Shown here: positions 4,927 to 64,000 of the stretch, piece by piece
Layout of the letters: the number at the start of each line of letters is the position of its first letter
Position numbering within the stretch: position 1 is the stretch's first letter
Origin: Eubacteriales bacterium
GTDB taxonomy: Bacteria; Bacillota; Clostridia; Lachnospirales; JAVBJQ01
Length of the DNA stretch: 64,000 bases
NCBI GenBank assembly: GCA_031546905.1
Contig: JAVBJQ010000041.1
Span: forward strand, 39,102-103,101
Reading direction: 5' to 3'
The notes under the pieces: model-generated
Told to the model about the DNA's origin: nothing
Seen by the model: the letters and a program-made list of their open reading frames with translations, nothing else
Databases searched by the model: none
Made by a program: the position numbers and the translations under genes

Positions 4927-7900
4927 TTAGTCATTAATTTGTTTTCTCTTTCCTATCAATTTTCCTATTTCATTTAAATAGAACATTCCAGATATATGCG
5001 GCATACTGTAACTCTTCTGGGATGAAAAATTGTCAGTAATAATTCCTTTTTCTCCCAGTATTGTCCAAAAAATACTATACCCACTTTCATTAAGATATTC
5101 AAATAAACGATTTTTATCAATAAAGAATCCTATGTCTTCATTTAGAAGCTCCATGCTATCAAAACATATTATCAAATTATTTTGATCATATAAAATCGAA
5201 TCCTCCTTTCCATACTTCATTTTTAAACAATTAAATAGTTCGCCACATGGCTTGTACCACATACAGCTGCTTTCTTCTCCAAGTGTATCCCCATCTCGCT
5301 CGGTCAGATATTTAAAAGTAGGAATTAGGACTTTACCAAGGTTTGCATACTTTTTCTCACGAAAGTTATCAATATCAACCCATTCTTCACCACAATAATA
5401 TGGGTTTTCAAAGAAGCTGTATCCTTCAGACCAATAATACTCTTTATTATAAAGTTGATGGTAATCCCTTGGCTCTGGCATCCATCGCCCCATAAAATCA
5501 GCATCTGAAAGTTTTGTTATTAATTCATCAAGTTGTTCTTTTTTCACAATATAACTATTTACCTGAACCCACATATTTTTTAAAGGATTCTGATATTTTT
5601 TATCTCCAAGAGCCTTTTCTTCTGTCCACGAATACTGACCATTCAACAAGATAAAGTCTCTGCTATTATAATGAATGTTCATTAATTTCTCTATGTCTGG
5701 TAAATCATTAAATTTCTTTAACCATTCGCTATGTTCTTGCTTGGGTATCTTATAAAGTTGCTGGTGAACAGATTTTTTACAACTACTTCTTTCAGTTTTA
5801 GTTAAGGATATTGTAGGGTCAATATTCCTAACATTAGGTTCAAACGAGCCTTTACAATAGACCTTATTTTTAGTTCCACGAGCATCCACATATATCTGCA
5901 TTTTATAGTTATCACTTACCTGTGCTGCTAACTCAAAAAATGCAATCCATTGATATTTTTTGCCTATTCTTTCTTTGGTATTGTTAATCGTTCTTCCACT
6001 ACCTCTATGTCTATCATATTGCCCATGCTTTTCAGCATCATATCCTAGATCAAAAATCTTTTTAATTGCAATATTTTTCAAATCCATTGGGTCTAGTTGT
6101 TTCCAGTTGCTAAAATAACTCTGAAATGTATACCTGCCGAAATCACCATACCCCCCTGGTGAACCATCTCGAGAATATTCCACCTTCATTGAGCTTAAAA
6201 TAGAATTTTGCCCCCAATAATAATCTTTAAAACCTTTATCTTTATGGTCATATTTGTATTTTTTTACCTCATCATCAGATGGAATGTTGGGGAATATAGA
6301 TTTATAAGGAGGAGTCACTTTTGTCATATCAATATCCAATTCGCTTAATCTATACTCCGCATAATCAATGATATTCTTAGCATAATCACGGAGTAAAATA
6401 TTCGGATAAACAAATTCTCTATTAAAGATAGCCTTATATACATATTTTGCAAGCAAAGTTAGTTGGGAATTATTCGTTTCGGATACTGAACACCCAAATG
6501 CAACCGCATATAAACGCTCAGCAACATAAGGATCGTCAACATCTCTAAATTTTTGCAATACTTGTATTAGTATTTCAACATGACCTTCTAATAGAGCTAC
6601 CATTGCTTTAGTACTCTTGTCACGCAAATGCCGATTTGAAGAAATCAAAAAAATAGATATCATTAATGCTGCAAGTCTAATGGCATCATCAGAAATTTTA
6701 TAATTTACTTTAGTTGATAAACACCAGTCTAGTATTCTATTTATAGAGGAGCCTTGATTATCAAAAAAAATATCAAACATAGGAATAAATAAAGCATCTC
6801 TGTCAGGCATGGATATTCCTAAAATAAAATCAACTGTCATGTCTGCGTTAAAAACAAACTCACTTTTTGTAGAAACCAGAATCAATGTTTCAATAAATTG
6901 TTCAAAAATATTACTATTACCTTTCATAATATATTTGTTGATATAATTAATAGTTTTCTCGTTAACAGAGTTTGAACTTCTCCACTTTAGACTCTCAATA
7001 AATGCACATTTCACTGCCTCATGTTCAGGTGCAAATATATCAAATATTTCGTAATCGGTATCTTCTGTAGCACAGATAGCCAAGCATCCCAATATATCCC
7101 TGTAATGAATGAGTCGAGCATATTTTTTCGCAAACACTTTGATATCATTTTGCAACTCTTGAATGAGTATTTTAGAATATAAGTAATCCTCTAGCTTTTC
7201 ATATGTTATAAACAGATACTCTTCGTCTTCATAATTTATATTTTGTGTCAATACTCCTTCTGAAAGCAATTGTTCCAAAAGATCAGATTGGCAATTGTAT
7301 TTATTTTGTATTTTAAGAATCACTTCAAACATATCTTGTAAAGGTATAAAATTGCCTCCAGAACCTTTTTCATATTTATATTTTATAATTTCATTAATTA
7401 CTTCTCTAATAACTTTATAACGATGATTATATCCACAATTCTCTGCTATCCTTTGATTTATTGCCTCTAAATAATTATTAAAAACCTCAGACAATGAAAT
7501 TTCATCTATATTTATTGAATGATTTCTGTGTCCTTCACAAAACAGTCTTAAAAACAGTGGATTACCAAATTCGTGATTTGCAAATGGAACATCAGAAAAA
7601 ACAATACCATAAAACTCAAAATATTTTTTTACCGCTATATACTCAAGGGATTTAAAGCCACTATGAGTTATCATAACTAGTTCATTACGTAAATCCTCAC
7701 TACCGTTTAGCAAAATCTCTGTGTATTCAGAGCGAATTGTGATTACAAGTCCTATCCATTGGAATTTTTTGATTTTTTCAATAATACCTGCTAAATAATT
7801 TTTCCAAATTGACTTACCGTTACCTTCATTCAAAGCATCAATAAAAATTATGATTCTTGATTGTTGTTCCTGTGCGATAGAATTTATTTGTTCTAAGAAA

Positions 7901-9003
7901 GAATCCACCTCTAATTTTACACCGAGGAAACTTATCATTTCGTTTAATGGTGGTACATATCCTTTAAAATGTTGTCCCAAAAATAGCAAAGATTTATTAT
8001 TGTTAGCAATCCTTCTTTCAATAGCATCTGCAAGCAAATGAGATTTACCAATTCCACCTTCTCCGTCAATTAAAATGTAAGGTTGATTAACCGCTCTAAC
8101 CTCTGGTGAATCTAAATATTCAATATACTCCTCAACAGAACTATATGCTTCTCTGACTGAATATAGTTTATCTCTAAGGCCACTGCTATTTCTGTCTTGA
8201 TTTATCTTTGAATTTAAATCTATCATTTCTTTATTAAGAATAGAAAATATATCCTCTAGCAATAGCCGTATTGTGCTAATATCTAAATGAGTATCTTTAT
8301 CAGCTAGAAAGATAGTCATTACTTCTGTAACTTTGTCAATTAGGCATTTTAATCCGTCAATATGTAATGATTTTATTTTTACTATTGCGTTATCACTCTT
8401 ATCTTTGAAACGATGATAAAAATCATCATTTTTCGCCAATCCATCAAATACTTTGCTAGTTTCGGTGGAGATATTTAAGTCAGGAATGTATCTGTTTCCA
8501 AGATTCTTTATTTGCTCACGATTCTGTCTTGTAAACCATTCATCTGATAAACTTGTCCAAGTCTGAGTATGAATAGTTTTATGGATAGCTAAAAGCTCAT
8601 TTTTTATGGTATTTAAATCATTTTGAGCGACTCCGAACATTCCTTGTATGTTTTCAATCTCAAACTTATTTTGCATAAGCACATAGAATATTGCTCGATC
8701 ACTTGGCTGAATATTTATATATATAAAATCCTTCGTTTTATTTAAAATTGTTATCAAGAACTCATTAACCAGTTTGGTATCAAGAATAGAAATTTTAAGT
8801 TCATTATTTTCTAATGTGTAAATTAATTGACTCTGCATTTCAGTTAAGTAAGTTTTTTCATCAATAGTTTCATTAGATATTTTTAGTACATATTCAAAAA
8901 TTCGAATGATAAGTTTATGATTTGTAATGTAGCCGCAAAACTTTCCAGTTGTTACTATTGTTCCACGGCTCTTTTTTTCAAATTCATCGACCCATTTTAA
9001 CAA
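4927..9003 (-). CDS. giant STAND/NACHT-like P-loop NTPase (candidate NLR-type defence protein)
   Basis: 1358-aa ORF. Walker A is ILIDGEGGIGKSHLL (near 8041-8075), Walker B is RIIIFIDALNEG, followed by WIGLVITIRSEY and GNPLFLRLFCEG (NACHT/STAND-like signature). The ~300-aa N-terminal and ~650-aa C-terminal regions have no motif I recognise. The frame stays open to 9126, with a GGAGGG SD at 9117-9122, so the real start is probably upstream of TTG 9003. Confidence 0.8.
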   Translation of the reverse strand: MLKWVDEFEKKSRGTIVTTGKFCGYITNHKLIIRIFEYVLKISNETIDEKTYLTEMQSQLIYTLENNELKISILDTKLVNEFLITILNKTKDFIYINIQPSDRAIFYVLMQNKFEIENIQGMFGVAQNDLNTIKNELLAIHKTIHTQTWTSLSDEWFTRQNREQIKNLGNRYIPDLNISTETSKVFDGLAKNDDFYHRFKDKSDNAIVKIKSLHIDGLKCLIDKVTEVMTIFLADKDTHLDISTIRLLLEDIFSILNKEMIDLNSKINQDRNSSGLRDKLYSVREAYSSVEEYIEYLDSPEVRAVNQPYILIDGEGGIGKSHLLADAIERRIANNNKSLLFLGQHFKGYVPPLNEMISFLGVKLEVDSFLEQINSIAQEQQSRIIIFIDALNEGNGKSIWKNYLAGIIEKIKKFQWIGLVITIRSEYTEILLNGSEDLRNELVMITHSGFKSLEYIAVKKYFEFYGIVFSDVPFANHEFGNPLFLRLFCEGHRNHSINIDEISLSEVFNNYLEAINQRIAENCGYNHRYKVIREVINEIIKYKYEKGSGGNFIPLQDMFEVILKIQNKYNCQSDLLEQLLSEGVLTQNINYEDEEYLFITYEKLEDYLYSKILIQELQNDIKVFAKKYARLIHYRDILGCLAICATEDTDYEIFDIFAPEHEAVKCAFIESLKWRSSNSVNEKTINYINKYIMKGNSNIFEQFIETLILVSTKSEFVFNADMTVDFILGISMPDRDALFIPMFDIFFDNQGSSINRILDWCLSTKVNYKISDDAIRLAALMISIFLISSNRHLRDKSTKAMVALLEGHVEILIQVLQKFRDVDDPYVAERLYAVAFGCSVSETNNSQLTLLAKYVYKAIFNREFVYPNILLRDYAKNIIDYAEYRLSELDIDMTKVTPPYKSIFPNIPSDDEVKKYKYDHKDKGFKDYYWGQNSILSSMKVEYSRDGSPGGYGDFGRYTFQSYFSNWKQLDPMDLKNIAIKKIFDLGYDAEKHGQYDRHRGSGRTINNTKERIGKKYQWIAFFELAAQVSDNYKMQIYVDARGTKNKVYCKGSFEPNVRNIDPTISLTKTERSSCKKSVHQQLYKIPKQEHSEWLKKFNDLPDIEKLMNIHYNSRDFILLNGQYSWTEEKALGDKKYQNPLKNMWVQVNSYIVKKEQLDELITKLSDADFMGRWMPEPRDYHQLYNKEYYWSEGYSFFENPYYCGEEWVDIDNFREKKYANLGKVLIPTFKYLTERDGDTLGEESSCMWYKPCGELFNCLKMKYGKEDSILYDQNNLIICFDSMELLNEDIGFFIDKNRLFEYLNESGYSIFWTILGEKGIITDNFSSQKSYSMPHISGMFYLNEIGKLIGKRKQIND

Positions 9004-9371
9004 CTCGTCTTGAAATTTTTGAATCGCTTTCTTATCTTTCCAGATTGCTATACCATCAAATAGAAAACTGGAAAATACATTTGTAATTATTCCTACTAAA
9101 GTTTCTATAATGACATCCCTCCATATTCTTCATGTTAGAATTATACTATACAAACAGGACAAATGCATGAAAAAAATAAGAAGAAGGAAGAAAAAATGAT
9201 ATAATCAAGTAAAAAAAGTTGTGTCAAAGAATGGAAGAAATATTTATATTTTTGGAAAGTATAGTAGACGACTGGCAAGAAATAGAGATATTCCGACAAA
9301 ATAATGACGAACTTCTGAAACGGTATGTACCACTAGAAACGGGATACCGTCACATGATATACTCGACGCAC

Positions 9372-18723: not shown

Positions 18724-19215
18724 TCATATTACCATAAATAAAAATGCTATCACCCAGACCATCAACACCACACCAAAACAACACAGTACTTTTTTCAGAA
18801 GACTTATTTTTCTGGAACGACTGATCGTGTCACAAAAAGATACCCCGATAATTCCAATAATGGCACCAATAAATCCAAATGTAAACGTTGGTGACATACA
18901 AAGCAAGAAAAATACATAAAATAATTTTTGACGTTCTAACATGGGGGTAAATACTGCACCTGTTTCCAATAATTTTCCATCTACTGCGATGCCTTTCACT
19001 TCTTTTGATATAATGCCACCACGAATGACAATATAAATTGGATGCCCCTCAAAGTCAATGAGAAAGTCTTTGTCATTAGAGAAAAAATCAAATGTAATAA
19101 ATTGTTGGTCCCCATCATCGATGGAATAGCGCCAACGCCCTTTCGTTGTAACTTTTATGATGTGCTCCACATCATATATTGTAAACTTCCATTCATATTC
19201 TGTTGATTTAGCCAT
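18724..19215 (-). CDS. hypothetical membrane protein
   Basis: 163-aa ORF with a soluble N-terminal half and three C-terminal hydrophobic helices. No recognised motif. Confidence 0.5.
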   Translation of the reverse strand: MAKSTEYEWKFTIYDVEHIIKVTTKGRWRYSIDDGDQQFITFDFFSNDKDFLIDFEGHPIYIVIRGGIISKEVKGIAVDGKLLETGAVFTPMLERQKLFYVFFLLCMSPTFTFGFIGAIIGIIGVSFCDTISRSRKISLLKKVLCCFGVVLMVWVIAFLFMVI

Positions 19216-38685: not shown

Positions 38686-40128
38686 TTATATCATTTTTTT
38701 AATTTCATCTGCTACAAATTGAACTTGTGTTCCAACGATAACTTGAACACTTGTTTTTCCAGGTTTAATAATCCCAGAAATGCCAGCAGATTTAATTTTC
38801 TTATCATCCACTTTGGTCATATCTTTTACTTCAACTCTTAATCTAGTCGTACAATTGTCGATTGAATCAATGTTTGTTTTTCCACCAAGACCTTCTAAAA
38901 TTACTTTTCCAACTTGGGAAAAATTATTGTTGGCTAATCTTATGGATTTTTCTTCATCATCAATATCATCATCTTCTCTACCAGGAGTTTTTAAGTTAAA
39001 TCTCTCAATTAAAAATCTGAATAAGAAGTAGTAAATAACACCGAATACAAGACCTTGAAGAAGTAACATATAAGGCATATTTGCAAGAGGCAACCTAGAG
39101 CTTAACACAAAGTCAACAAGACCAGCACTAAATCCGAAGCCAGCTGTCCAATGGAAAGTAGCCGCAATTGCAAGTGAAATACCTGTTAATAAAGCATGAA
39201 CAACGTATAAACCAGGAGCTAAAAACATAAATGAAAATTCCATTGGTTCAGTAACGCCTGTGAAGAAAGAAGCAAAGCCAGCAGCCAACATAAGAGAGGC
39301 AGCAATTTTTTTCTTTTTATCTTTTGCGGTGTGGTACATTGCTAACCCAGCAGCAGGTAAACCAAACATCATAACAGGGAAGAAACCAGCTTGATACATA
39401 CCTGTAACGCCTTTAACACCTTTTCCACTCCAGAAATTTCCTATATCATTAATACCAGCAACATCAAACCAAAAAACAGAGTTAAGTGCATGATGTAAAC
39501 CAGTAGGAATAAGCAATCTATTAAAAAATCCATAAATACCAGCTCCAGCAGGTCCGAGTGCAGCAACGCCTTCGCCAAATTTTACAAGGCCAGTGTAAAC
39601 GGGAGGCCATATGAAAAATAAAATAGCAGAAACAATCAGCATGGCTCCGGCAGTTACAATAGGAGCAAGTCGCTTCCCACTAAAGAACGCCAAGGCATCT
39701 GGCAATTTAACCCCTGAGAAACGGTCATAACACATGGAGGCAACAACACCAGAAATAATACCAATAAAAGCATTTGAAATTTTACCAAAAGCAGGATTTA
39801 CTTGTGCAGCATCAATATGTAGTAACATAGAAACTGTACCTGTACTCAATAATGTTGTAATAACCAAAAAAGCAACTAAACCACTTAATGCGGCAGCACC
39901 ATCTTTTGATTTTGTCATTCCAAGTGAAATACCCACTGCAAACAGAATTGGAATGTTGTCAATAATGGAAGCCCCTGCTTTGATAAGAAATGCAGCCAAT
40001 GCACTATTGGTCCCCCAACCAGCTGGGTCAATCCAATATCCAATACCCATTAAGATTGATGCAACGGGTAAAACAGCTACTGGAAGCATTAATGACTTAC
40101 CAAGACGTTGAAAATAACTCATTACCAT
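38686..40128 (-). CDS. PTS glucose/N-acetylglucosamine-family transporter subunit IICB
   Basis: 480 aa. EIIC membrane domain (GITEP-type motif GVTEPMEFSFMF) followed by EIIB with the phosphorylatable Cys motif IDNCTTRLRV. Confidence 0.92.
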   Translation of the reverse strand: MVMSYFQRLGKSLMLPVAVLPVASILMGIGYWIDPAGWGTNSALAAFLIKAGASIIDNIPILFAVGISLGMTKSKDGAAALSGLVAFLVITTLLSTGTVSMLLHIDAAQVNPAFGKISNAFIGIISGVVASMCYDRFSGVKLPDALAFFSGKRLAPIVTAGAMLIVSAILFFIWPPVYTGLVKFGEGVAALGPAGAGIYGFFNRLLIPTGLHHALNSVFWFDVAGINDIGNFWSGKGVKGVTGMYQAGFFPVMMFGLPAAGLAMYHTAKDKKKKIAASLMLAAGFASFFTGVTEPMEFSFMFLAPGLYVVHALLTGISLAIAATFHWTAGFGFSAGLVDFVLSSRLPLANMPYMLLLQGLVFGVIYYFLFRFLIERFNLKTPGREDDDIDDEEKSIRLANNNFSQVGKVILEGLGGKTNIDSIDNCTTRLRVEVKDMTKVDDKKIKSAGISGIIKPGKTSVQVIVGTQVQFVADEIKKMI

Positions 40129-53337: not shown

Positions 53338-54516
53338 TTAGTGGGAATTTTTCGATACATCTTCTAATGTATCACTTTTCATTTCAAACAAAGCCTTTCT
53401 TTCAAATTGAAAGGTATCAGTAACAGAGAGTAGTGTTATTTCATATTCATCCTTTACTACGCCCATGTATCCTTCTACGTGGCAAATAGTTCTATAAAGA
53501 GCACCATCGTCACTATCAGTACCACGATCACTATACCAAGTTAAAATATCACTATTCAAATTGTTCACTTGGATTTCGGAGTCTAAATATTCATTGGTAT
53601 AGAATTTAAGTGACCGTTTCTCTTCAGGCATCAAAATATATAACTGTAATAAGGTTCTGCTATAGAATTGCCTCATTTCTTCTAAACTGATAACTTCACT
53701 TCTATCACCATATTTATTTTTATTTTCTTCATCGGCTTGTAATGCCTTTTCATGGTTTTCTTTCAATATGTCATAGTCCCGTTGGAAATCTTCCATCATA
53801 TTATGAAGCTCTAATTTTTTAATTATAAAATAACTTTCTTCTCCCGTTTTTGCTATGGTATATGGAATTTTAATGTCACATTCCCCCACTGGTACAGTAA
53901 CTGATATACCTATAAAATGAGTACAAAATTTATATGAGGGTAGATAGATTACAAGGTTATTTATTTCACTTATGGGCTCCCTAAATTGAAAACAATCTTT
54001 TCTAAAAGCCAGTTCTTTATCCTGTAATGCCTTTGGTATACGGTCTGTTTCTGTTACTAAATTCAAAAGATACTCATACTCACCATAATACATTTTCATA
54101 ATGTCATCCCATTCAGATTCTGGTGGGATACATTCATGTATGTTAGGTACACAACGATGAGTACCACCTCCATTTGTAGGCAACTGGTTCAGCTCATATG
54201 AAACCATGGGCATGAGCTGAAATTCACAATCGTTTTCAAAAGCCAACATCACAGAATCTCTGTATGTAACAGCCCTTTTGTATTGGAGCAACCCATCTTT
54301 TTGTTTATTATAATCTCTATCAAATTTCAAATCATATAGATATAAAAACATAACAAAATCTTCATACACATAGGCAGATACTAAAAATTTTTGTGTTTTG
54401 CTGTCAACTTCTGTGGTTACCCAAGTATTTATTGGACATTCCAACTTTTCGTCTCGGTTTTCAAGTGTCAACTCAGTACCCCTGTCCCTGTTGAAGTCGT
54501 TAATAAACCGTTTCAT
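53338..54516 (-). CDS. hypothetical cytoplasmic protein (392 aa), no recognisable domain
   Basis: Long clean ORF 13 nt upstream of vanY-like on the same strand. GGAGGA SD 8 nt before the ATG at 54516 (MKRFINDF..). No TM, signal peptide or known motif found by eye. Confidence 0.6.
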   Translation of the reverse strand: MKRFINDFNRDRGTELTLENRDEKLECPINTWVTTEVDSKTQKFLVSAYVYEDFVMFLYLYDLKFDRDYNKQKDGLLQYKRAVTYRDSVMLAFENDCEFQLMPMVSYELNQLPTNGGGTHRCVPNIHECIPPESEWDDIMKMYYGEYEYLLNLVTETDRIPKALQDKELAFRKDCFQFREPISEINNLVIYLPSYKFCTHFIGISVTVPVGECDIKIPYTIAKTGEESYFIIKKLELHNMMEDFQRDYDILKENHEKALQADEENKNKYGDRSEVISLEEMRQFYSRTLLQLYILMPEEKRSLKFYTNEYLDSEIQVNNLNSDILTWYSDRGTDSDDGALYRTICHVEGYMGVVKDEYEITLLSVTDTFQFERKALFEMKSDTLEDVSKNSH

Positions 54517-54674
54517 ACAAACCATCCTCCAAACATTTTAGAATCTTCTATGCTGACAGTCATAATATCATCCAAATAATACATAGTCTTTTTATCACTC
54601 AATAATTTATGATGGTTTTCCAAATCACCGAGATGAAGTTCTCTAATAGTCAGTCTATCTGTTTGCAAATACAT
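54513..54674 (-). pseudogene. N-terminal stub of a RimJ/RimL-type GNAT acetyltransferase
   Basis: AGGAGG SD plus MYLQTDRLTIRELHLGDLENHHKLLSDKKTMYYLDDI..SIEDSKMF is a typical GNAT N-terminus. The ORF ends after about 53 aa, before the acetyl-CoA binding core, where the 392-aa gene begins. Confidence 0.65.
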
Positions 54675-54843
54675 ATCATTTTGCCTCCTGTATGGTACAA
54701 AATAGAAAAATCTTATAAAGCTAAACCCCATGGCTATTATGAAATTTTGACCGTATAGGCTATCAGTACATATTTGTATTTTTGATTTTACAATTGCTTG
54801 TATACATTGTCATTTTTCACCATACATACTTTAACTGACCTTA

Positions 54844-56900: not shown

Positions 56901-56945
56901 CGAGTAGTACGGCTCAGCGTATCAACAGCGAGAGAGTGTTTTTAC
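56901..56945 (+). repeat. intergenic repeat copy c6 (core GTACGGCTCAGCGTATCAACAGCG..TTTTTAC)
   Basis: Aligns by eye with copy c4 (about 17 of 23 core positions) and shares GTACGG with c1-c3. Lies upstream of the plus-strand methyltransferase pseudogene. Confidence 0.45.
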
Positions 56946-57208
56946 AGTAACCCTTCAACAATGTAAATAACACTATTTTCAAATTTTTTTAGCCAATAAT
57001 TTACCAAACCTAAAACCCTTATAAAATTAAATTTCCTTGCTCTAATAAAAGCGAAAGGTAGATAAGGATTATTTTTGATGTTATCATATAGATACTGAAT
57101 TGGCTTTGAAAATTTATTATTTGTGGAGGATATCGGTATGGAGAAGAATCTGATTATAGAACAAATATTATAGGCGCTGGGGAAGTTGGCTCTGCCAGCT
57201 CGGTGGAG

Positions 57209-57862
57209 ATGGATAAAAATTCTATTCATAAAACAAACAGCTTATTTTGGGATACAACAGGAAATGACGTTTTAGGAACGACAGCGCTTCCGCTGTACGG
57301 AGCATTTGTGTCAGAAGAGAAGTGCCAACTGTTTGGCGATGTCTCAGGAAAAAAGGTGCTTGAGATAGGCTGAGGGAACGCAAAGTAGCTGAACTATGGG
57401 GTATGGACATATCAGAACAACAACTGAAAAAAACAAAGCAACATTTAACAGCATGCGGCCTTTCAGCAAAATTGATCTGTTCTCCCATGGAAAATGAATG
57501 TGGCATACCAATGGATTATTTTGACTTTGTTTATTGGGTTTATGCCGTAGGCTGGACTACCGACCTTGAAGGTACTTTTTGCCGAATCGCTTCTTACCTT
57601 AAAAAAGATGGCGTATTTATTTTTAGTTGGTCTCACCCTATCTATAAATGTGTTGTTGCTGAAAATAATATGCTTGCTTTTAAAAAATGTTATTTTGATG
57701 AATCTTGGTATTCGGTATCTCTTGGTGAAAGTGTGCTAACATTACCGGATTGTAAACTAGTCTGATGATGAAATTATACAATCCAAGAGTGATACCAATG
57801 ATTTTGCAAAAAAGGCAAAAATGTTACCTGTAACTTTTGTAATCAAAGCAAGAAAACGATAA
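57209..57862 (+). pseudogene. class I SAM-dependent methyltransferase, inactivated (nonsense + deletions/frameshifts)
   Basis: MDKNSIHKTNSLFWD..GKKVLEIG, then TGA where the GCG motif Cys is expected. Part of the SAM-binding region is missing. It resumes in another frame (AELWGMDISEQQLKK..DGVFIFSWSHP) and shifts again for the C-terminal ..AKKAKMLPVTFVIKARKR*. Confidence 0.75.
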
Positions 57863-57929
57863 GCGTATATAATTCTATTTTTTTAGGCATCCCTAAATGA
57901 GAATGTTCTTCTTGTCACTTGCCATTGCG

Positions 57930-57964
57930 CCTACCTCCTTATGGGGAAGGAGGTAGGTTTATTT
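57930..57964 (+). terminator. rho-independent terminator
   Basis: Perfect 11-bp stem CCTACCTCCTT / AAGGAGGTAGG with a 6-nt loop, followed by TTTATTT. It overlaps the stop of the convergent 221-aa gene. Confidence 0.75.
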
Positions 57965-58624
57965 AATCCAAATATCAAATGCTGATTGGTTATCTATTAT
58001 TAAATTTGCTATTAGCTTGCTTGTCTCTTCAAAATAATTAAATCTTGTTTCATCACTTTGTATCCCTAGACCTTTGCAAAAATTCTTATGACTTGTCATA
58101 AATTCCCCCCTTGATATTGTAATGTGCAGTAGGGGTAAAAAATTGATTTTGTTTAATTGAAAATTTTCTATTCTTTGTTTAAATTCATATCCTAATTCTA
58201 ATGTTGTCCAGGGGTTATTAAGATTTTTTGTTTTATTATTTTTGATATTCATGTAAGTTTCACATCTTTGAACAAATTCATAAGCTTTTGCTCCAAAGGT
58301 AAATATTAATCTTGTTTTTTCTTCTGTGGTTTGAATAATATTGCAAAATGCTTTCATCTCCGCATCCAGTTTCGTAGTATTCTTCCAATCTTCCTTATCT
58401 ACCACTGCATTTCTTATGTAAATTTTTGATGTGTCAATTCTTTTCCCTGTATTTCTATAAAGGATATCTTGCACTTTGTCAATTATAGGTGTCCAAATAT
58501 TATGTACAGCTCCATGTCTGTCATCTAAAGGCAAATCAAGTCTATTTTTAAAATTTTCAGATGACGAATCTGCCAGTAACCAAATATTAAATTCTTTAAA
58601 AGCAATATTGTTTTCTCTTTCCAT
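57959..58624 (-). CDS. hypothetical protein, possibly uracil-DNA-glycosylase-like fold
   Basis: 221-aa ORF with a GAGAGGA SD. The motif order IWLLADSSSE .. IYIRNAVV .. IFTFGAKAYEF .. LPLLHITISRG loosely mirrors UDG-superfamily motifs (GxxPG, N-containing strand, LG..A, HPS). Weak by-eye inference only. Confidence 0.55.
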   Translation of the reverse strand: MERENNIAFKEFNIWLLADSSSENFKNRLDLPLDDRHGAVHNIWTPIIDKVQDILYRNTGKRIDTSKIYIRNAVVDKEDWKNTTKLDAEMKAFCNIIQTTEEKTRLIFTFGAKAYEFVQRCETYMNIKNNKTKNLNNPWTTLELGYEFKQRIENFQLNKINFLPLLHITISRGEFMTSHKNFCKGLGIQSDETRFNYFEETSKLIANLIIDNQSAFDIWIK

Positions 58625-58771
58625 TCATAAACATTCCTCTCAACATTTTTATAAACAGTTAATTATTTCCTTTTGCAAAGTGGTATTCAACCCCAAAATT
58701 AACTCGCAAAAAAGTTGAGTTGTGAATACCTATCTAAATACTTCCATGATATGAAACCTCTTCAAAATAAT

Positions 58772-58818
58772 AAAAGCAAAGACGCTTCCACCAAAACAAC
58801 CGTCTTTGCTTTTTTTGT
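58772..58818. terminator. terminator between MerR-REC gene and 221-aa gene
   Basis: AGCAAAGACG / CGTCTTTGCT 10-bp stem with a 16-nt loop, T6 on the plus side and an A/T-rich tract on the other. Confidence 0.6.
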
Positions 58819-58825
58819 TTGGTGT

Positions 58826-58872
58826 CATTTATGGTATGGTTCTCCGTATCACTGCGTCTTCATCGGTTTTTA
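58826..58872 (+). repeat. intergenic repeat copy c4 (GTCATTTATGGTATGGTTCTCCGTATCACTGCG..TTTTTA)
   Basis: Its 5' half matches the reverse complement of c1 (ATTTATGGTAYGGT), and its 3' half matches c6 (TC..CGTATCA..GCG). Confidence 0.5.
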
Positions 58873-58880
58873 ATATCAAA

Positions 58881-60254
58881 TTAATTTGTTATATACATAT
58901 TATTTAGCAAAAACAAACTAAACATATTATGATTTGACTCTACAAACGTTGATAGGATGTAACTGTCACTTTTTGAGATGCGTATACTATCGCATGGTTC
59001 AATGCACAAATTTTCACAATTGATTAGAATAGTCTTTTCGAATTCTATGAAATTTTTATTAAATCTATCTTGGTCAAAACTTGTCGTTTTAGGATAGCAA
59101 AAAGCACCTATTACCTCATTATTGTTTTTTACAACAAAGCATTTGATATTGGATTGAGAAAGAACGTACATTTCAATTATACCAGACCAAACAAAGTCTA
59201 CCATTACAACAGGAAATTTACTAGTGTCTTGGATATTGAATAAAATTTGATTATTTATTTCTCTTTGTAATGCAATATTTAATGGTACCTTTTGAAAGTC
59301 TGTCTTACCATTTTTCACAGCTACATTTTGAAAACTTTTGCTATCTGCAATATTTTCTTGCATATGTCTTTCTTTTAGTTTATTTAGATATTCTATTATT
59401 TCCTCACAAGAAACATCATCTTGACGCTCAAAGTAACTCCTATATGTGTCAACTTCTTGTTGAGTTAATGGCAAATTTCTAAAACAGTCTTCGTCAAATT
59501 TGTTGAGTTCATCTTGTAATTGATTTAGTCGTGAAACTTTTATTTTGTTTTGCTGTGTGTCATTTAATAGATTTATAACGCTTGAAATAAAACGCTCGGT
59601 TTGTAATGGTTTTGATATAAAATCAATACTGCCAGCTTGCACAGCTTCATGTAATATATGGAGCTGACTCATAGCCGTGCAAAGTACGAATTTTGCATCA
59701 GGATATTTTTTAACCACAATATCGCAAGTGTGCAGTCCATCTTGCTTTGGCATAACAATACCCGATATGACAAGGTCTGGGCGGTATTGTTCATATTTTT
59801 CAAATGCTTCAACTCCGTCCTGTGCTTCTATTATATTATCATACCCATAAGAAGCCAGTATATCTTTCATTAGCAGTCTTTCAAAATTTACACATTCAAC
59901 TACCATAATCAGTTTGTTCTTTTCCATACCCAACTCTCCTAACTTTTTCATTATAATCTTGATACGCATTTCGTCTGCATAATAGGTCTGCTTTAAAATT
60001 TGTAATTTGTTTTTTAAAGCAATCGCTAAAGTTTCTTGATTGGCGTAAAGTAAAGTTTTTATTTCATTAAGCGTAAACCCATAATATTTCAGTTCCTGAA
60101 TAAGCAATATTTCTTTTATCTGTATGTGTGAGTACATTCTGTATCCATTCTGATTATTCTTCTGTGTAGGTCGTAGTAATAAAATTTCATCATAATACCG
60201 AAGTGTATTTGTAGATATATTTACAAGCGTTGATATTTCTCCTATTGTATACAT
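58881..60254 (-). CDS. MerR-type HTH + degenerate receiver (pseudo-receiver) + unknown C-terminal domain fusion protein
   Basis: 457 aa. N-terminus YTIGEISTLVNISTNTLRYYDE..GYRMYS (MerR HTH). The central CheY-like fold has the acidic pair replaced (VVEC) and the phospho-acceptor position reading G (PDLVISGIVMPKQDG), while T (CTAMS) and K (FISKP) are retained. About 200 aa of C-terminal sequence is unassigned. Confidence 0.8.
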   Translation of the reverse strand: MYTIGEISTLVNISTNTLRYYDEILLLRPTQKNNQNGYRMYSHIQIKEILLIQELKYYGFTLNEIKTLLYANQETLAIALKNKLQILKQTYYADEMRIKIIMKKLGELGMEKNKLIMVVECVNFERLLMKDILASYGYDNIIEAQDGVEAFEKYEQYRPDLVISGIVMPKQDGLHTCDIVVKKYPDAKFVLCTAMSQLHILHEAVQAGSIDFISKPLQTERFISSVINLLNDTQQNKIKVSRLNQLQDELNKFDEDCFRNLPLTQQEVDTYRSYFERQDDVSCEEIIEYLNKLKERHMQENIADSKSFQNVAVKNGKTDFQKVPLNIALQREINNQILFNIQDTSKFPVVMVDFVWSGIIEMYVLSQSNIKCFVVKNNNEVIGAFCYPKTTSFDQDRFNKNFIEFEKTILINCENLCIEPCDSIRISKSDSYILSTFVESNHNMFSLFLLNNMYITN

Positions 60255-60446
60255 AAAAAACTCCCTTCACGAAACTGGTATCTATATCATCTTAAGATAT
60301 TCTTATCATAAAGGTTAGTGTTGGATGAATGTCAAGCGTTTTTTATTTTACAATAAAAAAAGTCGTTATCACTTTATGTGAAACAACGACAGTTTTCAAC
60401 TTTACTCTATATCTCCAAGTAATTTAAAAACGATGATAGCACGTTT

Positions 60447-60476
60447 TACCGTGCCAATGACAACGTTGTGCTTTTA
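60447..60476 (-). repeat. intergenic repeat copy c5 (degenerate)
   Basis: The minus strand reads AACGTTGTCATTGGCACGGTA, related to the GTCATTTATGGTAYGGT core with a small deletion. Confidence 0.3.
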
Positions 60477-60570
60477 TTTTTTTATTTTAAAGTTTATCAG
60501 TCAACAGTTTGTCTAAACCTAAAACTCCTATGAAGCAGAGCGTCATTGCAGTTATAAAATTTCCCTCATA

Positions 60571-61197
60571 CTAAATTTTACCAATACCAGCAAAACCTAA
60601 AAACAATAAACGTATTAGTATCTCAGTAATAATAGCAATACCAAGACCATGAAATCGTTTAAGTGGCTTTGGCACTTTATTATGATATAACTTTTCTCTA
60701 ATACTAGCCAATACAATAATATGAAAAACAAATCCCAAACTCGCACCTAATGTATAACTCATACCAAGAACAAGTGAATAATTCAAATCATAGCTTACAC
60801 GATGGACACCACAGATTACGGAGATTGCTGGAATTAATATTAGATAAATTCCCCGCTTGTTATACCAAATTGGAGCTATTTTCTGAATTACTTTTTCAAG
60901 AAGCTGAACGAATATTGCCATAATCAAAATAAATACAACTTTTTTTAAAAATTCATTGCCAGTTAACTGAGGAACAAAAAGAAAAATACCTCTGGTAAAT
61001 ATTAAACTGAATAATATAGTAGGAAAGATAGCTATACCTAGACTAGCCGATGCTTTAAAATTTTTTGATACAATAAAATTTATACATAACCCCAAAACCC
61101 CATTTAGAGCAGAGTTATTTACAGTAAAAATCAATATCGGAATCAGAAGTGTTGCACCAAACTCTCTCATAAAATATTGCAGTCTGTGTCTCATCAA
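60571..61197 (-). CDS. orphan RnfA/RnfE/NqrDE-family membrane protein
   Basis: 208 aa. Aligns by eye along its full length with RnfA (VNNSALNGVLGLC..; FILIMAIFVQLLEKVIQK..P; SIREKLYHNKVPKPLK..GIAIITE..FLGFAG). No other rnf/nqr genes are in the window. ATG at 61194 is the likely start. Confidence 0.8.
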   Translation of the reverse strand: MMRHRLQYFMREFGATLLIPILIFTVNNSALNGVLGLCINFIVSKNFKASASLGIAIFPTILFSLIFTRGIFLFVPQLTGNEFLKKVVFILIMAIFVQLLEKVIQKIAPIWYNKRGIYLILIPAISVICGVHRVSYDLNYSLVLGMSYTLGASLGFVFHIIVLASIREKLYHNKVPKPLKRFHGLGIAIITEILIRLLFLGFAGIGKI

Positions 61198-61223
61198 CCA
61201 TCACCTTCTCAAAAGTTTAATAC

Positions 61224-61289
61224 AATCATTCCTTTGTTTTTAGGAAACTCCAAAACACACCGTACCATAAATAACGAAGCGTTTTTGAA
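61224..61289 (-). repeat. intergenic repeat copy c1
   Basis: The minus strand reads TCAAAAACGCTTCGTTATTTATGGTACGGTGTGTTTTGGAG...AAAGGAATGATT. It lies between the GNAT pseudogene terminator and the RnfA-like SD. Confidence 0.55.
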
Positions 61290-61346
61290 TTATTTAATAA
61301 AACCCAGTTTCTATGCTTATTCGCATAAAAACAGAGCAAGAACTTG

Positions 61347-61928
61347 CTAATTATCTAAGCGGTGCGTATTCAAGCTCATTGTCATCCATGTAATTTCATC
61401 TATCAAATCGGGTTGCTCAGTGTCAATAACAAAACCTAATTTGGAATAAAAATCAATAACTGTCTTACTTGATGGAACATTGAGGGTCGTGGCTTCAACG
61501 TTCATTGCTTCTTCAAGTAATTTAGAAAACAGTATTCTCCCATTCCTTTACTGTGCAGTTCTGGTTTAACATATAGATTGAGACCGTGTATTTAGGAGTT
61601 TCAAGTGCCCAAAATTTGCAAATGCGCCAGTTGCAACTATTTCTCCGCTGTGCACAGCAACATATACTTTTTTCCATCTTAACTGGGATAAAAGACTATT
61701 ACCAGTATTATGTGCCTTGAATTTATCCAGAACTGGTTTTGAATGAACCGTTGCCATAACCTCATCAAAATTTCTGCTTATTATGAGTGCGGTTCCCTCA
61801 ATATCAATGAAGGTAGCTTCTCTTATAATCATCTCTTGACTAGTCAGAATTTTTTCTAAATGCTTTTGTAAAATAGGAATATCAATATTTAAGGCATCCC
61901 ATAATTTTAAAAAGAACAATTTTATCAC
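61347..61928 (-). pseudogene. GNAT acetyltransferase, frameshifted
   Basis: The track ORF 61566..61928 gives ..VAVHSGEIVATGAFANFGH. The rest of the GNAT core is spread over two other frames (YVKPELHSKGMG / ILFSKLLEEAMNVEATTLNVPSSKTVIDFYSKLGFVID..MTMSL). Confidence 0.75.
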
Positions 61929-61934
61929 GCTTGG

Positions 61935-62506
61935 TCATATATAATAATCAAATCCTTTTGAATTTCTACTTCTAGCGTTGGTGAAAAAGAGCCCATAAGC
62001 CTCCGCGAACAACCCCATATTTTTGAAACTTCGAAATAAGGATGGACTTAATTGATGCAATATCTTCAAGTTAAGTCGTCCAATATCTAAACATGCTTTT
62101 ATACTTGAAAATTCTTTAAATAAGTCATGAAGATTTGCACTCTGAGAGAAATAAGATGATATGGCATCATTTTCAAGAACAATTTGAAGGTTATATTGTT
62201 TTGATATTGCAGTTAATCTAAGAAACATATCATACAAATTTTGTTCTAAAATATCCTTTGCGTAATCTTTTTCATACATCCATTCCTTCTCATTAGCAAA
62301 TCGCCAATATGTGAAGTCAAAGGTGTCAGTGCGCTCTCCAATTACAGGAGAATGACTTTCACATTTTATTTAGTTTATTCACTTCGTCAATATGTGGAAA
62401 CATACATGCTCAACACCATAAAATCCATCTCGAAAATCGCTGCAAAGCTTTTCCTCAGCTCATACCCCAAGAACCAATTAAAAAATTCCTCATTATGAAT
62501 TCTCAT
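61935..62506 (-). pseudogene. xylose-isomerase-like TIM-barrel protein, multiply frameshifted
   Basis: N-terminal pieces lie in different frames (FLIGSWGMS / LRKSFAAIFE / GFYGVEHVCFHI), followed by stops. The 114-aa track ORF carries the C-terminal part (..IVLENDA..ACLDIGRLN..). Confidence 0.6.
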
Positions 62507-62580
62507 CTCCTAATTGCATTTTTAGCAGCACTCTCTTCTTTATATTTAAATTCTGACAATATAAACCAATGAAATTTGTC

Positions 62581-62625
62581 AATCCCCAACCTTCACCGTA
62601 CCGTAAATTACGGTGAGTTTTGATA
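62581..62625 (-). repeat. intergenic repeat copy c2
   Basis: The minus strand reads TCAAAACTCACCGTAATTTACGGTACGGTGAAGGTTGGGG. About 70 percent identical to c1 over 45 nt by eye. Contains the 7-bp palindrome CACCGTA/TACGGTG. Confidence 0.55.
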
Positions 62626-62630
62626 AATTT

Positions 62631-63572
62631 CTACTTATCATCATTTAACCAACGAGCTGACGCCAGATTCCAAATAAAATTTGAATATGGTCTGTTTATA
62701 TCCCCCAACTCGTTTGCTATTTTCTCTACAAACCCTAAAAAAGTTAGTGCCTGCTCTTTTGCGGTTAGCAAACTTTCAATATTTACTTCACACCAAATCT
62801 TCGTTTCATTATAAAGTGGAGAATTTTTTAATGCTGAAATGGCTTTTTGTATATCATATGATACTCTTTTTTCTTCAATAATCCATTGATTATCAACATA
62901 ATTTAGAATTGTATAAGGTGAACGATTATCAAAGTCTAAAGGATTTCCACATGAACCTGGGTTAACTAAAATTTGATTGTTCAGCTTAATATGCCACTGG
63001 GTATGAAAATGTCCAAATAAATAAATTCCATTTTGCAGTTCTTCTAAAGCCGTTGCCAGTTGTTCGTCTGATTTTAAAATTGCGTCTGCATATTGTAAAT
63101 AGTCTATATGCATAAAAGAACTTTTTTCCATGTGCATTGGATAATTACGACCACTTAAATTGTCAACCACTGTTTTTCCGAATATGTCTGTCGGTGAATG
63201 CGCCATAAAAATAAGCTTGCCATTGATGAATATTTCTTTTTTATCTGGCAAAGCAAACAACCATTCTCTATTCGCAACACTGACTGTTCTATAAGTCCAA
63301 TATACTGGGGCAAATTGTTCAGATGTCCATGTGGATTTGTCTTGGCATGAAAGATTTTTAAGATAGCCTTCCCCGTTACCATGAATTATGTATGTATTCT
63401 CCATAGATTTAATGGTTTCAATCACTTCATTCGGATATGCAAAACCGTTACAATAATCTCCTAAGAATATATAAAAATCAACTGCATTTTCTTTTGCATC
63501 TTGTATTACAGCTTGTAGTGCATGCAGATTTCCATGTATATCAGATATAACCGCAATTTTCAATTTAAGCAC
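62631..63572 (-). CDS. metallophosphoesterase (calcineurin-like)
   Basis: 313 aa. IAVISDIHGN, FLGDY, GNGE and GHFH motifs in canonical order. Confidence 0.88.
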   Translation of the reverse strand: MLKLKIAVISDIHGNLHALQAVIQDAKENAVDFYIFLGDYCNGFAYPNEVIETIKSMENTYIIHGNGEGYLKNLSCQDKSTWTSEQFAPVYWTYRTVSVANREWLFALPDKKEIFINGKLIFMAHSPTDIFGKTVVDNLSGRNYPMHMEKSSFMHIDYLQYADAILKSDEQLATALEELQNGIYLFGHFHTQWHIKLNNQILVNPGSCGNPLDFDNRSPYTILNYVDNQWIIEEKRVSYDIQKAISALKNSPLYNETKIWCEVNIESLLTAKEQALTFLGFVEKIANELGDINRPYSNFIWNLASARWLNDDK

Positions 63573-63613
63573 CTCTACCTAATATTTATCGATAACATTT
63601 ATGGTTTTATCAG

Positions 63614-63705
63614 AATCATTCCTTTTTGTGCGTATTCCCAAATAAGCAGTGAACTGCTCTTAACATCTACGGTTCACCGTACTTGCGAAGCGGCAATTTT
63701 TTGAA
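63614..63705 (-). repeat. intergenic repeat copy c3 (expanded)
   Basis: The minus strand reads TCAAAAAATTGCCGCTTCGCAAGTACGGTGAACCGTAGATG ... AAAAAGGAATGATT. Shares the TCAAAAA, CGCTTCG, GTACGGTG and AAAGGAATGATT blocks with c1, in the same order. Confidence 0.5.
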
Positions 63706-63799
63706 AGCACAAGCACGACCTCTTACCCAAATCTATTTTCCACGACGTTCGGTAATATGGAATATAAGTTTTTGCCTATTTTATTTTGAAAATAGTCTT

Positions 63800-64000
63800 T
63801 TATATCAAAAATTGCTTTCCATTTTGCCAAAGTTGAATAAGTTTGTCATAATCATCGTATTTACAATCTTCTAAATATCGTTTGAGGTGCTCATAATCTT
63901 CCGCCGGACAATCACTATACCCAAGTTCCATCATAAAGTTATAACCTTCTGTTACATGTTGCAAATCTGCCTTTGTTAAGCTCCTTCCGATGTCGTGAAA
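63800..64000 (-). CDS. HD-domain protein, C-terminal part (5' end beyond window)
   Basis: Open reverse frame FHDIGRSLTKADLQHVTEGYNFMMELGYSD...GKQFLI* reaches the window edge. HDIGR is an HD-family motif. Confidence 0.6.
   Translation of the reverse strand, partial: FHDIGRSLTKADLQHVTEGYNFMMELGYSDCPAEDYEHLKRYLEDCKYDDYDKLIQLWQNGKQFLI

Follow-up and report, generated by a model that had tools for sequence, protein, structure and literature searches.

Highly similar upstream regions that precede unrelated genes have been described as "putative mobile promoters," recognized by an identity of 80% or more across a minimum of 50 nt between -150 and -50 (Matus-Garcia, Nijveen, and van Passel 2012; PMC3575422). 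The DUF1874 motif, in turn, recurs in consecutive intergenic regions, and whether it plays an RNA or an attC-like role was left unresolved (Weinberg et al. 2017; PMC5737381). A 2016 survey found no complete integrons in the Firmicutes genomes that it covered but did find clusters of cassettes lacking an integrase (PMC4889954). Here we describe a short intergenic module that shares individual features with each of these systems and is found in a 64-kb stretch of chromosomal DNA from a member of the Lachnospirales (positions 39,102 to 103,101 of contig JAVBJQ010000041.1, assembly GCA_031546905.1; hereinafter, the window). A first-pass annotation of this DNA had claimed that a family of at least six related elements (c1 to c6) occupies nearly every intergenic gap between 56.9 and 63.7 kb and punctuates a cassette-like array of unrelated, partly decayed genes. 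We found that c1, c2, and c3 form a genuine family and that its membership amounts to three copies and one fragment, not six copies. We tentatively interpret the module as regulatory.

A small family of intergenic modules

In the orientation of the gene that follows, the three modules share the order B1 (TCAAAA), a spacer of 16 to 17 nt, B2 (GTACGGTG), and B3 (TTGGRR), and they range in length from 45 to 105 bp (Table 1). B1 and B2 together comprise 14 bases, all of them invariant in c1, c2, and c3, whereas overall pairwise identity is only 46 to 54%. The pattern TCAAAA-N14-19-GTACGGTG has three matches in the window (61258-61288, 62594-62623, and 63675-63704; all on the minus strand) and none in 100 dinucleotide shuffles. 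By itself, GTACGGTG is confined in the window to the same three elements (0.23 occurrences expected), and a relaxed scan with one mismatch allowed per block and a spacer of 15 to 18 nt retrieved these three perfect sites and nothing more (0.84 expected).

Comparison of whole intergenic regions gave a congruent picture. When the window's 33 intergenic regions with a length of 40 nt or more were compared all against all with composition-aware scoring, c1 and c2 emerged as the top-scoring of 1,056 pairs, with a score of 64.5 versus a mean of 29.9 (standard deviation, 5.4); the repeat finder places them at 73% identity across 41 nt. In local alignments, the score of c1 with c2 was reached by 0 of 300 shuffles and those of c1 with c3 and of c2 with c3 by 1 of 300 each. 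The similarity of c1 and c2 extends into the spacer, which shows that the copies are homologous rather than convergent. A profile hidden Markov model built from c1 to c3 and run over the window recovered these three alone and gave no further match, c4 to c6 included. The earlier remark that the core was not noticed in the first 56 kb is borne out by this profile and by both the strict and the relaxed scans, all of which are empty there.

The copies differ in the way in which the blocks are embedded. B2 and B3 are separated by 4 nt in c1 and c2 and by 33 nt in c3, where roughly 30 additional nucleotides are present. The spacer of c3 is unrelated in sequence to that of c1 and c2, and the distance from B1 to B2 is nonetheless kept at 16 to 17 nt; the heptamer CGCTTCG occurs in the spacers of c1 and c3 at differing offsets. 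A fourth block, B4 (AAAGGAATGATT...TAAAAC), is found in c1 and c3 only, with AAAGGAATGATT exact in just these two, and a 21-nt block, AAAGGAATGATTnT..TAAAAC, is common to both. c2, for its part, holds a perfect 7-bp hairpin, CACCGTA/TACGGTG. Past B4, the sequences of the copies are unrelated to one another, and the ribosome-binding sites and start codons lie 20 to 45 nt further on. Each copy is on the same strand as the next gene, with 61, 88, and 112 nt between the end of B2 and the start codon. A coding explanation of the conserved blocks was rejected, as the plus-strand frame running through both of them (HRT.....F*) displays no amino acid conservation where the nucleotides are alike, nor does any other frame.

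The support for the other proposed members grows weaker from c4 to c6 to c5. c4, which lacks the TCAAAA block, matches 14 of 17 positions of c1, a level of agreement for which about 0.22 occurrences would be predicted by chance; one equally good but unrelated match is located at 18725. It is probably an inverted fragment of the module. c6 is tied to the family through c4 only, by the string GTAYGG-N5-CGTATCA, which these two elements alone have in common and for which 4 of 100 shuffles reach an equal match count. Their alignment score is reached by 13 of 300 shuffles, and in alignments against shuffles c6 has no significant similarity to c1, c2, or c3, which makes its kinship with the family doubtful. 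Finally, c5 was ruled out as a member: its alignments to every other copy are no better than those of shuffles, and its sequence reads as a terminator-like hairpin. Thus, similarity beyond that of shuffled controls holds for the pairs among c1, c2, and c3, is weak for c6, and is absent for c5. The family of at least six copies contracts to three, accompanied by a 17-nt inverted fragment, and a solid copy is present in three of the seven gaps rather than in nearly all of them.

Table 1. Positions of the modules, of the other proposed elements, and of the surrounding genes in the window
Feature	Position	Strand	Remarks
c1 module	61215..61291	minus	Upstream of the RnfA-like gene
c1 blocks	B1 (TCAAAA), 61283-61288; B2 (GTACGGTG), 61258-61265; B3 (TTGGAG), 61248-61253; B4 (AAAGGAATGATTGTATTAAAC), 61215-61235	minus	
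c2 module	62581..62626	minus	Upstream of the decayed TIM-barrel gene; begins 8 nt past the phosphoesterase stop codon
c2 blocks	B1, 62618-62623; B2, 62594-62601; B3 (TTGGGG), 62584-62589	minus	
c3 module	63604..63707	minus	Upstream of the phosphoesterase gene
c3 blocks	B1, 63699-63704; B2, 63675-63682; B3 (TTGGGA), 63636-63641; B4, 63604-63625	minus	
c4	58825..58856	plus	TCATTTATGGTATGGT + TTCTCCGTATCACTGCG; between the stop codon of the MerR-receiver gene and its terminator
c5	60437..60456	minus	Terminator-like hairpin downstream of the RnfA-like gene
c6	56907..56930	plus	Linked to c4 by GTAYGG-N5-CGTATCA
Hybrid histidine kinase		minus	First gene of the 54.8-64 kb stretch
Decayed class I methyltransferase	57203..57765	plus	In-frame TGA inside the glycine-rich motif, then a change of frame
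221-aa open reading frame	57959-58624	minus	No Pfam domain
MerR helix-turn-helix and receiver domain regulator	58881..60254	minus	
RnfA/NqrE-like membrane protein	60571..61197	minus	Stand-alone, intact; closest homologue 37% identical
Decayed GNAT acetyltransferase	61347..61832	minus	Spread over three reading frames
Decayed xylose isomerase-like TIM-barrel gene	61833..62509	minus	Remainder beyond the 144-aa frame (61938-62369) in other frames or lost
Metallophosphoesterase (YfcE-like)	62631..63572	minus	Intact; c3 and c2 on either side
Open reading frame running off the window	63803..64000	minus	3' end; upstream of c3

A candidate promoter or operator

Of the explanations that we weighed, we prefer one to which we would still give somewhat less than an even chance: from its sequence features, the module may be a locally propagated promoter or operator of sigma-70-type geometry, positioned before three adjacent and unrelated transcription units. 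The centers of B1 and B2 are approximately 23 bp apart, and a reading in hexamers, TCAAAA-N17/18-TACGGT, can be applied to all three copies. Under such a reading, TCAAAA would serve as the -35-like and TACGGT as the -10-like hexamer, 17 to 18 nt apart; transcription would start about 7 to 9 nt 3' of GTACGGTG, where c1 and c2 have the TTGG block, and the AAAGGAATGATT...TAAAAC block of c1 and c3 would come to lie in the 5' leader. In each of c1 to c3, we find what is generic to promoters of the sigma-70 family, i.e., two blocks with a spacer of 16 to 19 bp, situated upstream of a gene in the same orientation at a plausible leader length. Moreover, TACGGT retains T1, A2, and T6 of TATAAT, the most important positions of the -10 element. 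Among the options floated in the first-pass annotation, a shared operator or 5' untranslated region (UTR) module hence fits best, in that two invariant blocks at fixed spacing are co-oriented with and upstream of the next gene.

The surroundings of the copies are consistent with such a role. Two terminator-like hairpins precede the module in the c1 gap, and a consensus scan detected no sigma-70-type site there on the strand of the module; in the c2 gap, the same scan gave no sigma-70-type site. The module is accordingly the sole promoter candidate in these two gaps. Its hexamers are poor matches to those of housekeeping promoters yet are identical in the three copies, which points to a dedicated factor. 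The reader of the module is probably an alternative sigma factor, similar to those of the extracytoplasmic function (ECF) type, or a polymerase-recruiting activator, in either case predicted to be encoded outside the window. Because the copies are homologous, the module appears to have been copied locally. An intergenic segment that was duplicated or recombined locally is the most likely source of the copies ("promoter reuse"), and c4 would be a broken leftover of the module. Like the putative mobile promoters (PMC3575422), the module is a segment of similar noncoding DNA that precedes nonparalogous genes and belongs to no known mobile element or RNA family; unlike them, its best pair (73% over 41 nt) misses the cutoff, and its copies are adjacent rather than dispersed. 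It also resembles the promoters of ECF-type regulons in combining two short invariant blocks with a variable spacer, unrelated downstream genes, and a nonhousekeeping sequence, but it differs from them in lacking their AAC...CGT signature and spacing, in the absence of a sigma/anti-sigma pair from the window, and in the similarity of the c1 and c2 spacers.

Several observations weigh against a promoter. The match to TTGACA-17-TATAAT is poor (three of six positions for TCAAAA and as many for TACGGT), and the consensus scan omits both hexamers. The consensus of ECF sigma promoters consists of AAC at -35 and CGT at -10, 16 to 17 nt apart; the module departs from it, with AAC-N18-CGG in c1 and c2 and with AAA in the place of AAC in c3, and no paper describing an ECF -35 element of the sequence TCAAAA turned up in a search of the literature. 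Neither a sigma factor nor an obvious cognate regulator was found among the window open reading frames (ORFs) examined. c2 starts 8 nt past a stop codon and precedes pseudogenes, and c4 sits where a promoter is not needed. Further, no copy of the module was detected in any relative's locus examined: the loci of distant phosphoesterase homologues (44 to 45% identical) have a different gene context, and four relatives' loci with orthologues or paralogues of the neighboring histidine kinase (50 to 78% identical; 58 kb in total) have other neighbors. Finally, the spacers of c1 and c2 are 70% identical, and both copies fold better than shuffles, neither of which is required of a bare promoter. Consensus sequences of other recognition sites were also compared by eye with the module; those of sigma-54, sigma-D, and sigma-H, a MerR-type operator, the CcpA catabolite-responsive element (cre), LytTR repeats, and Fur/Zur boxes were all rejected, none of them fitting c1, c2, and c3 together.

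The folding of c1 and c2 raises the alternative that the module acts in cis as RNA, within the 5' leader or between cistrons, for instance, as an mRNA stabilizer, a site of processing, or a leader bound by a protein. In the stem-loop that this would entail, UCAAAA pairs with UUGGRG, and an inner helix has GUACGGUG as its 3' arm. The cores of c1 and c2 indeed share the same nested hairpin (z = -2.39, reached by 5 of 200 shuffles, and z = -2.69, reached by 2 of 200, respectively). Several of its pairs are G-U, so that the RNA folds better on the gene-sense strand; c2 stands directly behind a stop codon without room for a promoter, and c1 and c3 have a conserved block 3' of the hairpin. Nevertheless, the fold is not found in c3 (z = -1.51), and when the flanks are added to the cores, the sense-strand fold is not significant in any copy. 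In the alignment of the three sequences, which constitute the entire sample for structural and evolutionary tests on the family, 72% of the cells pair, but this value is equaled in 323 of 500 shuffles, and the helices give no signal of covariation. A 6-bp outer helix with seeming covariation between the copies was discarded as being at chance level. No Rfam family matched at its gathering threshold (0 matches), and the distance to the start codon (61 to 112 nt) varies such that there is no consistent platform for sequestering a ribosome-binding site or for termination. As the hairpin is lost in c3 while the spacing of the blocks is kept, the constraint on spacing seems to be independent of folding. 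On these grounds, we consider an RNA element unlikely. The DUF1874 motif (PMC5737381) presents a parallel in that it too is found in potential 5' UTRs and repeated in consecutive intergenic regions; the module nonetheless matches it neither in sequence nor in structure at the Rfam threshold and is far simpler, with no supported multistem structure.

Mobile repeats, duplication, and gene cassettes

The hairpin-forming cores, with their A-run and T-run, are equally what might be seen in the relic of a small mobile or hairpin repeat, comparable to a miniature inverted-repeat transposable element (MITE), a repetitive extragenic palindromic (REP) sequence, or an end of an IS200/IS605 insertion sequence, that inserted between genes and is now decaying. 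Such an origin would accommodate the inverted fragment c4, found where a regulatory role is not apparent, as well as the clusters of TAYGG pentamers that occur in direct and inverted order in each element; TAYGGTAYGG is present at c1, c2, and c4 only and GTAYGG-N4-6-CGTA at c3, c4, and c6 only. The insert of c3 additionally gives a weak match to the Rfam family Transposase-1, the best of the subthreshold hits (23.1 versus a threshold of 42.8 bits), which covers 63607-63665 on the minus strand, includes exact GUUAAGAG and CACUG blocks, and is confined to c3, with no counterpart in c1 or c2. On the other side, all three copies fall within 2.5 kb and none is found elsewhere among the 33 intergenic regions of the window, and the block-wise pattern of conservation (14 invariant bases against about 50% identity elsewhere) points to selection rather than to uniform decay. 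No terminal inverted repeat is significant, target duplications were not seen, and no transposase or REP-associated tyrosine transposase (RAYT) is present among the window ORFs examined. Scans of public collections with a strict pattern (the motif plus the TTGG block) returned 6 genome, 12 metagenome, and 4 viral matches, all of them single, scattered, coding-like, and attributable to chance, the pattern having the c1/c2 form that c3-like copies escape; a plasmid collection searched with c3 gave no match. REP/BIME (bacterial interspersed mosaic element), Correia, and ERIC (enterobacterial repetitive intergenic consensus) sequences are likewise short, hairpin-forming intergenic repeats, which can carry promoter or terminator activity, but they occur in tens to hundreds of dispersed copies with clear terminal repeats, in contrast to the three clustered copies seen here. 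The earlier suggestion of a REP/MITE-like element is weakened by this clustering, by the lack of copies in the rest of the 64 kb, by the block-wise conservation, and by flanking helices that are not significant, and we hold it to be improbable.

A neutral history would dispense with function altogether: the modules could be leftovers of a local segmental duplication, involving a segment with a terminator and a leader, after which the intervening genes were replaced or decayed. The copies are adjacent and co-oriented, their similarity is graded (c1 and c2 are closer to each other than either is to c3), and the region is a decaying one, with three pseudogenes within 6 kb. Read on the plus strand, c2 is a hairpin followed by TTTTGA and so resembles a terminator; in c1 and c3, a T-run stands behind stems of only 3 to 4 bp, as read by eye and not listed in the terminator scan. 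Against this, 14 fixed positions on a background of about 50% identity would be very improbable in unconstrained sequence (our own estimate is ~0.5^14 per pair). In addition, the flanking coding sequences bear no trace of paralogy, and no protein-level duplication was found in the region. We see a functionless duplication as unlikely.

The idea with the widest implications is that the modules are junction sites of a system that accumulates gene cassettes, integron-like or otherwise, with the recombinase encoded beyond the window. In its fullest form, c1 to c3 would be the visible end of a longer cassette array in a spore-forming Firmicute, with short, non-attC hairpins as its sites; the array does reach the end of the window. 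As with integron attC sites and clusters of attC sites lacking integron-integrases (CALIN), the copies are co-oriented imperfect palindromes between unrelated single genes or gene pairs, here in one region only, and c2, in the manner of attC sites, adjoins the stop codon of the gene before it. The GTTGGGG of c2 comes near the attC R' box, GTTRRRY. The genes themselves have no close relatives (best identities, 46 and 37%), the array is not syntenic in the two closest available relatives, and the DUF1874 motif offers a precedent for an unexplained motif in consecutive intergenic regions (PMC5737381).

The details, however, set the module apart from integron attC and CALIN arrays. In attC sites, the R'' and R' core boxes form the stem base; R' is missed by both c1 (GTTTTGG) and c3 (ATTTGGG), and the R''-like TCAAAAC and CAAAAAC do not fit RYYYAAC. 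Palindromes of attC sites are about 57 to 141 nt long and fold on one strand with extrahelical bases, whereas the hairpins of c1 and c2 span 41 to 45 nt and c3 lacks the shared fold. The copies also diverge far more than the attC sites of one chromosomal array usually do, and some junctions, namely, TIM/GNAT and RnfA/MerR, are free of a copy. An integron would have an integrase (IntI) and attI in the vicinity or a site behind every cassette. Among the ORFs examined in the 64 kb, no tyrosine or serine recombinase or integrase domain was found, and the 2016 survey recovered no complete integron from any of its Firmicutes genomes (PMC4889954). With the attC consensus unmatched, the hairpins seemingly too short, and no recombinase in the examined ORFs, the proposal of a recombination or junction site in a cassette system receives no positive support. 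We regard junction sites of any such system as very unlikely, and the specific picture of a longer array with non-attC hairpins as having a marginally slimmer chance.

Gene neighborhood and host lineage

The window has a G+C content of about 33% and encodes GroEL, GuaA, GuaB, WhiA, RapZ, MurB, HprK, and UvrC, along with phosphotransferase system, chemotaxis, and two-component genes. That the genes around the modules are partly decayed, as claimed earlier, is confirmed by degradation of the methyltransferase, the TIM-barrel gene, and the GNAT gene. Within the TIM-barrel gene, a 144-aa frame (61938-62369) aligns to residues ~108 to 202 of homologues of about 300 aa. By eye, a 72-aa ORF at 54513-54731 on the minus strand resembles an acetyltransferase reduced to its N-terminal stump; Pfam gives no match for this ORF, which may be a further decayed gene immediately beyond the range of the first-pass annotation. 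Pfam domains are likewise missing from ORFs of 1,358 aa (4927-9003, minus strand) and 395 aa (53338-54525). The RnfA/NqrE-like subunit gene has no other Rnf or Nqr genes beside it. Upstream of the gene for the MerR-receiver regulator is a promoter-like TTGACA-19 nt-TATGAT (60305-60335, minus strand), which the consensus scan, allowing only 16 to 18 nt, passes over; promoters of the MerR type typically have such an overlong spacer of 19 nt. The idea that the region is a defense island was dropped, there being no meaningful PADLOC matches.

Other repeats in the window were noted. The longest inverted repeat pair between 54 and 64 kb, 56964-57003 with 63765-63804, brackets the array; it is 40 nt long, 73% complementary, AT-rich, and near chance level, and 58761-58783 is connected to 63768-63790 by a related match of 23 nt. 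The second-ranking of the 1,056 intergenic pairs is a 50-nt direct similarity between 432-481 and 9288-9337, unrelated to the modules. The third is a 75-nt direct similarity between 56977-57050 and 60485-60559, perhaps a remnant akin to the 3' flank of the RnfA-like gene, that has no support at the protein level.

The lineage is, judging from database matches, poorly sampled: among 5.8 billion proteins, the best nonself match is 46% identical for the phosphoesterase and 37% identical for the RnfA-like protein. The histidine kinase has orthologues that are 75 to 78% identical in GCA_031554055.1 and GCA_031546735.1, at loci with a G+C content of about 40 to 42% versus 33% here. The kinase has entirely different neighbors in these two genomes, indicating that its surroundings are not conserved in the nearest available relatives. 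Sporulation genes occur in a more distant relative whose histidine kinase is 56% identical (those for YpeB, Coat_F, and a SpoIIGA-type peptidase), and on this basis we treat the host as a spore-forming Firmicute.

Taken for what it is, the finding is a modest one, a real but small three-copy family in a decaying accessory gene region of an undersampled Firmicute, for which a reused promoter or operator module is the most likely reading. A cassette system would matter much more, given that the surveyed Firmicutes have no complete integrons, but the present evidence does not favour it, and the finding would gain importance only should the complete genome reveal a longer array with a recombinase. 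If the module is instead a promoter, the locus would offer a clean, small case of one control signal copied before unrelated accessory genes, and its 14 invariant bases would represent a candidate recognition site for a sigma factor or activator in a lineage with almost no sequenced relatives.

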